A DNA stretch of 63,919 nucleotides, filler included, from Collodictyon triciliatum (lineage: Eukaryota): the NCBI GenBank assembly GCA_043381765.1. It is 6 parts of 4 records of this genome, joined end to end, with 100 filler letters (N's around TTAATTAATTAA, not from the genome) between each part and the next. Parts side by side here need not be neighbours in the genome. Positions count along the whole stretch, not along the records: positions 33,704 to 53,001 come from JBHJMP010000906.1; 5 more parts are not named here. The stretch is one strand, 5' to 3'. How positions within the stretch are numbered: position 1 is the stretch's first letter; each line of letters starts with the position of its first letter. This document shows positions 52,058-52,475 of this stretch, one piece after another. Both the position numbers and the translations under genes were made by a program. Below the pieces are notes generated by a model, which was given only the letters and a program-made list of their open reading frames with translations, did no database searches and was not told where the DNA came from.

Positions 52058-52349
52058 CCTTAAAAAAATGTTGATGGCTGGCTTTATCTCCTTGCCTTCT
52101 CTATGTTGTGTCTGCCTCGTGGTCCAGTACTGATATCCTATAATACTTGGCAGATATTAAACGAAGACTTGCTGCTTGTCAAAGAGGAAGAAAAAAACTT
52201 AAGCAGACTCATAGCGGCTATGTTCGTCCGATCTGAATTCAGAAGCAGTGAAATAGAGGAGGATTAGAGCTGTCATATTCCAGACCACATGTCCATCGGA
52301 TCCATTTTTTTTTCTTGTAAACAAGATACAGATGTGGTATTGTCATTTA

Positions 52350-52475
52350 TGTATTTCTAGGAGTATACCAATCTTACGATTGGTAAACCTAGTGCGCTAG
52401 TATCCAAGGTCTCACACTTTTTTCACTAAGGTCGCGTAGTGGTTAAGGCTGCCAGGAAAGACCCGACAGCCTATT
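52350..52475 (-). ncRNA. Putative Fanzor omegaRNA scaffold / element right end
   Basis: Three hairpins directly after the Fanzor stop: 52446-52472 (11 bp including 2 G-U on the minus strand), 52424-52441, and 52357-52392 (TACCAATC-GTAA-GATTGGTA extended by CTAGG/CCTAG). Confidence 0.5.

Follow-up and report, generated by a model that had tools for sequence, protein, structure and literature searches.

The 3' end of a Fanzor1 gene family in Collodictyon triciliatum: a candidate omegaRNA scaffold in a probable Helitron

Introduction

Do the hairpins that follow a decayed Fanzor gene in Collodictyon triciliatum derive from the scaffold of an omegaRNA, from the end of a Helitron, or from both? 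Fanzor1 ribonucleoproteins are described, in the parts of the literature available to us, as using a scaffold from the 3' end of the element together with 14-15 nt of its flank as the guide, and as cutting beside a TAM (PMC10432273, PMC13565253). Our analysis points to both: the hairpins probably close a dead copy of a Fanzor1-bearing, non-autonomous Helitron family and combine omegaRNA and Helitron signals.

The window, i.e. the whole stretch of DNA analysed, comprises 63,919 nt of assembly GCA_043381765.1; positions 33,704-53,001 come from JBHJMP010000906.1. The features of the locus are the following:

52869..52963, minus strand: (AAT)n run at which the window copy is truncated; the contig ends about 40 bases further on
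52474..52868, minus strand: 3' remnant of the Fanzor1 gene with RuvC-II (DEFRTS), zinc finger and RuvC-III (RDFN)
52471..52473, minus strand: TAG stop of the window copy, in frame; CAG in 48 of 89 copies
52446..52472, minus strand: stem-loop 1 of the putative omegaRNA scaffold, 11 bp; from the fold, covariation in viral relatives and a covariance model match
52412..52445, minus strand: predicted stem-loop 2, with an 8-bp outer stem, an unpaired A, an inner hairpin and a 5-nt purine bulge; from fold, covariation and covariance model
52386..52411, minus strand: predicted stem-loop 3, 7 bp; relatives without a demonstrated counterpart
52366..52385, minus strand: stem-loop 4, a 20-nt palindrome with a GTAA loop in the window copy; candidate Helitron terminator hairpin
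52357..52365, minus strand: right end of the element with CTAG at 52360-52357, followed by A; boundary from aligned copies
52341..52356, minus strand: host flank, putative source of a guide of about 15 nt starting at 52356 or 52355; guide length by analogy (PMC10432273, available in part)

The Fanzor1 gene and its protein relatives

The remnant in the window comprises 130 codons. RuvC-I and all sequence 5' of it are missing, the frame is shifted in a poly-A run near 52625, and the first Cys pair of the zinc finger is damaged. Because of the missing 5' part and the frameshift, the window copy is dead. The remnant matched PpFz1 (9cf0) in phmmer with an E-value of 4e-7, and a profile built from seven sister fragments found SpuFz1, GtFz1 and PpFz1 as its only matches in the PDB (E 1e-54 to 1e-40), which places them in the same protein family. 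No Fanzor or TnpB model of the Pfam copy searched matched the fragments or P0001, the best of 44 proteins found in the homologue search (648 aa, 65% identical over the query). The window remnant is 57-60% and the family consensus 59-69% identical to this intact protein, and the consensus frame is open except for homopolymer slips. The Fanzor1 clade to which the family belongs has many intact members of 620-660 aa. P0001 and P0046, both intact 648-aa Fanzor1 proteins from metagenome assemblies, have a 33-residue RuvC insertion in common with the host family that is absent from the viral relatives. The DNA encoding P0001 was not found in metagenome, viral and prokaryote collections searched with patterns of the host family or of P0001.

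The preliminary description of the locus had placed the stop codon 4 nt before the first stem. In fact the in-frame TAG overlaps stem 1. This position reads TAG in 34 of the 89 copies, and the consensus frame extends 16 codons past it, through stem 1, as does the frame of P0001. GtFz1 likewise has an omegaRNA with C-terminal codon overlap and four predicted stems, according to the portion of the literature at hand. A comparison of stem 1 with P0001 through the codons alone gave three changes, all compatible with pairing; this is weak and was given no weight.

Copies in the genome and the right end of the element

Searching the genome with this stretch of the window gave at least 356 candidate matches, of which 40 were scored; the other 39 were 84-87% identical to it. 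The C-terminus of P0001 gave at least 572 candidates, 150 of them scored. Both counts are lower bounds and not copy numbers. The 30 loci examined from the second search enlarged the known family; a more diverged sister family was not recognised in this set. The element is about 3.5 kb long and of high copy number, and 21 of 29 distinct loci have both ends (17 near full length, 4 internally deleted).

The family is an old burst, dead as far as seen. This follows from the identity of the copies to their own consensus (89-94%, 36 aligned), from the lack of any open frame above 252 codons in the first 30 loci, from a star-like tree (terminal branches 7.25, internal 0.7) and from an even level of substitution across codon positions (0.069, 0.072 and 0.081).

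A sharp conservation boundary, for which a genome search had been suggested beforehand, was indeed found: in 30 aligned copies the right end falls at 52357. Among 92 distinct ends 56 are CTAG, and the next base is T in 77. After an exact CTAG it is T in 48 of 56, so that the A of the window copy is an exception. Conservation is 86% at the G of CTAG, 83% at the following T and at most 54% directly beyond, and the A+T content is 78% in the 12 nt after the end as against 65% farther out. Only two pairs of shared flanks were present among the 92; the scaffold is conserved among the copies, and the sequence beyond the end is variable.

Three copies (L374, L375 and L376; G000 C1304, C9266 and C1362) have an 82-nt 3' flank in common that has no other match in the genome. 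Between L375 and L376 the near-identical flank is longer, although their bodies are only 87% alike. The shared flank could reflect read-through transduction or duplication.

On the other side, (TTTG)n obscures the 5' end, where the legible starts are mostly TT and in one case TC. The left flanks are A-rich and mostly end in ...AA. In 21 two-ended copies the two sides agreed at 7.8 of 12 positions compared with 7.6 +/- 1.0 for mismatched pairs, i.e. there is no excess of target site duplications (TSDs). By eye, L311 has a 14-nt near-repeat on both sides and L306 a weaker one. No terminal inverted repeat (TIR) was seen when both ends were compared by eye, and the search through shared flanks found no empty orthologous site.

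The flank of the window copy (52150-52356) matched only itself in the genome and is therefore single-copy DNA. Its putative guide had no 20-nt match among the loci compared, a set smaller than the genome. In one run, whose kind we guessed, 93 contigs cover 52359-52860 and continue into other flanks at 52359; these contigs are silent on strand and expression.

Several neighbouring features were recorded in the window. A 242-codon frame without Pfam match (51428-52156), on the minus strand like the element, begins some 200-300 bases past the end of the element, so that the insertion occupies its upstream region. On the next contig, exons for the SnAC domain and the bromodomain of a remodeller of the SNF2 family lie at 54081-55546 (plus strand). 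Two pieces of one abundant repeat lie at 61900-62004 (plus) and 63515-63636 (minus). The same repeat also precedes the Fanzor-free Helitron remnant in locus L131 and is a frequent insert within Fanzor copies; its piece at 61900-62004 comes after a reverse-transcriptase fragment (61381-61917, RVT_1) and may be a retrotransposon end.

Folding of the 3' end within the family

The sequence elements described beforehand are present on the minus strand: stem 1 at 52472-52446 with 11 bp including two G-U pairs, the hairpin at 52385-52366, and CTAG followed by A. The proposed preference for folding in the sense of the gene was borne out as well. The minus strand of 52300-52490 folds at -49.3 kcal/mol (z -3.68, 0 of 200 shuffles as low), the plus strand with z -1.74 (13 of 200). 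For the last 121 nt of the family consensus the values are -48.5 kcal/mol with z -5.5 in sense and -3.6 in antisense direction; 12 windows of the reading frame gave z -1.7 to +1.9. The consensus is predicted to form four adjoining stems and a 12-nt tail.

The family fold differs from the one first drawn in two places. The CACTA/TAGTG hairpin is present in the window copy and not family-wide (TAGTG in 9 of 89 copies); stem 2 of the family is the 8-bp stem at 52445-52412 around an inner hairpin, and two of its pairs are broken in the window copy. Likewise, the outer CTAGG/CCTAG stem exists in the window copy and is nearly private: only 3 of 89 copies have CTAGG, and 8 of 92 ends are CCTAG; the family pairs this arm in stem 3.

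The loop of stem 4 had been taken as an argument for the sense strand. It is a GNRA loop in 61 of 89 copies, whereas 10 of 89, spread over the tree, have GAAA exactly inverted to TTTC. Since these inversions recur, and since the terminator of the Fanzor-free Helitrons of this genome has a GAA loop, a GAAA loop cannot tell RNA from DNA and is not diagnostic. We infer that the recurrent inversions are DNA-hairpin events. One base of stem 4 is deleted in 24 of 66 copies.

Within the family there is no covariation: two-sided changes were found in only 4 of 2546 cells in 66 copies. An Rfam search returned three chance matches, all far under the gathering score. This lack of an Rfam match would suit hairpins that arose by chance, or a transcription terminator unrelated to any guide RNA, and so would the weak model score of the window copy given below. 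The z value of the consensus speaks against such an origin, and the comparison with other Fanzor1 elements does so more strongly.

Structural homology to independent Fanzor1 elements

For this comparison, 160 loci from viral and metagenomic Fanzor1 elements served as relatives. By BLAST their 3' ends have no likeness to those of the host family. The closest relatives fold into an 11-bp stem, directly followed by an 8-bp stem with an inner hairpin and a 5-nt purine bulge. Fifteen sequences, all non-host, were chosen among 81 listed for the alignment, and more distant ones were left out. Among these 15, two-sided changes were found in 15 of the 23 pairs, a value that none of 500 shuffles reached; relatedness of the sequences is the caveat of the tool. 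Hence the covariation that had been called for appears in stems 1 and 2 among the relatives, not within the family. Stem 1 has the same length and place in the viral relatives, with two-sided changes in 7 of its 11 pairs.

A covariance model of the 15 relatives found stems 1 and 2 in all 29 host copies tested, in the correct place and on the sense strand, with 16.7-39.3 bits (24 of 29 at E<0.001; best off-target match 11.6 bits). A sequence-only model from the same alignment found no host copies, its best score being 4.2 bits, and on 15 Fanzor-free Helitron loci the covariance model gave at most 9.4 bits. On the 64-kb window the window copy ranks first, though weakly (17.4 bits, E 0.018), narrowly ahead of two unrelated matches with 16.7 and 15.8 bits. 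The test was not blind, because the sequences were chosen and the structure drawn after the family fold was known. For most of the 15 relatives, the fold predicted from the single sequence is in accord with the structure of the model.

The match in 29 of 29 copies, which depends on structure, largely refutes chance hairpins or a terminator as the explanation; we consider this very improbable. The structure modelling instead supports stems 1 and 2 as homologues of the 3' ends of independent Fanzor1 elements. Together with their position at a sharp right end, this agrees with the original reading as an omegaRNA scaffold, and we regard such an ancestry of the hairpins as very likely. In the portions of PMC10432273 and PMC11423790 available, the scaffold of Fanzor1 omegaRNAs lies between the gene end and the right end, as in the host family. 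Stem 1 is predicted with 11 bp in the host family as against 7 bp in the SpuFz1, GtFz1 and PpFz1 structures. Compared with the omegaRNAs of these three, as far as the sources describe them, the host scaffold has no TIR; the likeness concerns predicted structure and place.

A large second viral Fanzor1 clade (L220-L293, viral contigs) has a weak stem 1, an extra hairpin and the same mariner-type end.

The carrier of the relatives and of the host family

The relatives are IS630/mariner-type elements. In 7 of 13 examined, the left and right ends agree at 25-26 of 26 positions; the other six had no left end in the sequence compared or no match. They are mostly flanked by TA and insert after ...TTTA or ATTA, and L135 encodes a DDE_3 transposase. 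The giant-virus IS630/Tc1-mariner Fanzor1 elements (PGv-1 type, PMC3627910, available in part; L134-L217) have 43-47% protein identity to P0001 and the same architecture of stem 1 and stem 2 as the host family. They differ in having TIRs of at least 26 bp, TA flanks and DDE_3. No trace of a TIR or of DDE_3 was found in the host element, the end and middle of which have no similarity beyond the stems; judged by TIR, TA duplication and DDE transposase it is not an IS630/Tc1-mariner element. Because the relatives sit in IS630/mariner elements with TIRs, the Fanzor cassette appears to have changed its carrier.

Sequence kinship suggests that the present carrier is a Helitron. The 5' 0.8 kb of the element is common to Fanzor-free Helitrons linked to a RepHel gene. 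Its first 0.5 kb is 73% identical to the Fanzor-free locus L316 over 498 nt, with a further 80% over 167 nt, and the part that follows matches the subterminal region of these Helitrons (L131 and L316) at 77-80% identity. The chain of kinship runs through these two loci to L114: L316 carries a RepHel remnant and is 63% identical to L114 over 625 nt, and L131 is a decayed RepHel relative with 92% over 239 nt. L114 (G000 C6377:627-4208) contains a RepHel gene with a frame of 1194 codons, partly N, with N-terminal STPR repeats and with Helitron_like_N and PIF1 above cut-off. The frame is cut by the end of the contig and contains N's, so that the termini and the HUH/Y2 motifs are not visible. Contigs numbered beside this one were unrelated. 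L114 is apparently the only intact-looking RepHel gene found. L115 and L117, the latter with a long 69-nt tandem array, are older, decayed Helitron-like loci (66-68% alike) that form a family apart from L114. A start of the small Fanzor-free Helitron at A|TC was considered and dropped, as its similarity extends further upstream.

The Fanzor-free family has its own hairpin-CTAG end, followed by T in 16 of 17 pattern matches. The 5' part common to both families ends in a poly-T and then TCGGT, which in the Helitrons forms the first hairpin arm; this holds for about 12 of the 18 junctions listed. The host element itself has several features of Helitron1, namely a 3' CTRR end with a hairpin of 16-20 nt lying 10-12 nt upstream, no TIR, no TSD with one or two possible exceptions (L311, L306), and kinship, through L316 and L131, to a RepHel-encoding partner in the genome. 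Features of Helitron2 (CRe type) were not found, as there is no TSD excess and the left flanks are A-rich; asymmetric terminal inverted repeats (ATIRs) were looked for by eye.

Alternatively, the omegaRNA scaffold could end a non-Helitron element, unclassified or TSD-forming, with the CTAG and hairpin as a coincidence and the Helitron-like 5' DNA as a passenger. A 5' TC was not seen, the starts being mostly TT, and the near-repeats at L311 and L306 would fit this reading, as would the existence of TIR-less, TSD-flanked Fanzor1 elements such as MCi-2 and MCi-5 (PMC3627910, as far as available). However, the 21 two-ended copies have no TSD excess, CTAG|T is common to the Fanzor-free Helitrons of the genome, the two parts occur together in all 17 near-full-length and 4 internally deleted copies, and the break falls inside the old Helitron terminator. 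We therefore take a non-Helitron element to be unlikely and a Helitron to be quite probably the carrier. Thus a Helitron end, at first named as the alternative to an omegaRNA, held with respect to kinship and the hairpin-CTAG end; it stands alongside the omegaRNA, not in its place.

Proposed history and mechanism

The simplest interpretation is that a Helitron, once its terminator hairpin was lost, continued into a Fanzor cassette with IS630/mariner kin. The TIR end of the mariner type would thereby have been replaced by a hairpin-CTAG end, stem 4 and CTAG forming the new end. Capture by read-through upon hairpin loss is described for Helitron1/Helraiser in the accessible part of PMC4778049, and the same may have happened here. 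The transcript of a master element would have run through the gene past CTAG and been trimmed to an omegaRNA with a scaffold of about 121 nt and a guide of about 15 nt from the flank. Fanzor1 would have bound it via stem 1 and could have cut the empty site. RepHel, acting in trans, would have moved the element by rolling circle, stopping at stem 4 and CTAG.

In this scheme stem 4 has a putative double use, as it would also be read as single-stranded DNA by RepHel. Stems 3 and 4 are placed in the RNA because they are located between the scaffold core and the element end; stem 4 is probably also within the omegaRNA. The near-invariant T after CTAG probably belongs to the scaffold too. According to the available part of PMC10711439, invariant flanking bases join the scaffold, so the predicted guide start is 52355 with the T as part of the scaffold and 52356 without it. 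This is at the upper edge of the range of 52355-52320 proposed at the outset.

The same anatomy is also compatible with pure cargo. In that case the Fanzor gene and scaffold would have been captured once and copied passively by the Helitron, the omegaRNA would never have been made or used, and only stem 4 and CTAG would have been functional; the difference to the interpretation given above is one of function. When pair-keeping was compared with pair-breaking transitions, only stem 4 had a significant bias (p 0.009; stems 1-3, p 0.22). Equal substitution at the codon positions and the star-like tree point in the same direction, yet dead copies decay neutrally whatever the master did. The left flanks ending in ...AA, as against ...TTTA or ATTA in the mariner relatives, suggest that the former TAM might be unsuited to the present target. 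On the other hand, the consensus frame is open apart from the slips and still resembles P0001, and stems 1 and 2 kept their pairs while their sequence changed relative to the relatives. We judge passive cargo to be a possible but rather doubtful account.

Activity of the nuclease during the burst of the family is likewise somewhat doubtful in our view. The full scenario is a tentative one, namely that the module moved from a mariner-type element, probably of giant viruses, to a Helitron1, that its last hairpin gained a dual use and the T was absorbed, and that guided cutting of empty sites aided the spread.

Relation to known systems and implications

Fanzor1 genes in Helitrons are already known from the Helitron2 CRe elements (PMC3627910, PMC10530073) and from listed Helitron associations (PMC13565253), as given in the parts of these papers at hand. 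CRe-1, CRe-2 and CRe-3 of Chlamydomonas (CrFNuc) are likewise described there as non-autonomous Helitrons with a Fanzor1, with 3' ends kept and an RNA at the 3' end. They are Helitron2 elements with ATIRs, a 5' hairpin, insertion after TTTT, variable TSDs and introns. The host family, in contrast, ends in a hairpin and CTAG|T of the Helitron1 type, lacks a TSD excess and has a continuous reading frame, and unlike in CRe its 3' terminator differs from that of its Fanzor-free sisters.

Closer to the host element in its end is Helraiser (Helitron1), for which the available part of PMC4778049 gives a palindrome of about 20 nt lying about 12 nt from CTAG, then T, an A+T-rich 3' flank and no TSD. 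Unlike Helraiser, the host element has no 5' TC that we could see and no transposase, and it carries an RNA-guided nuclease. We found no description in the literature searched of a Helitron1-type end that doubles as an omegaRNA, nor of a switch from mariner to Helitron with a conserved scaffold core; supplements and Repbase may hold such cases.

How Fanzor1 hops between unrelated transposons, and what benefit it brings to a Helitron, the donor site of which is normally kept, are open questions (PMC10711439, PMC13565253, in the sections available). Here both carrier states are in hand: the mariner-borne relatives with TIR ends, and the Helitron-borne family with the same two-stem core, a new end and a capture scar. 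The comparison yields a minimal scaffold core conserved in a clade with intact members, which is useful for editor mining. Exact predictions for guide start and TAM follow from it. The window copy itself is a fossil. If the tentative scenario is true, each insertion would have its own guide, and the family would parallel, in a eukaryote and on a rolling-circle transposon, the homing of IS200/IS605 TnpA-TnpB.
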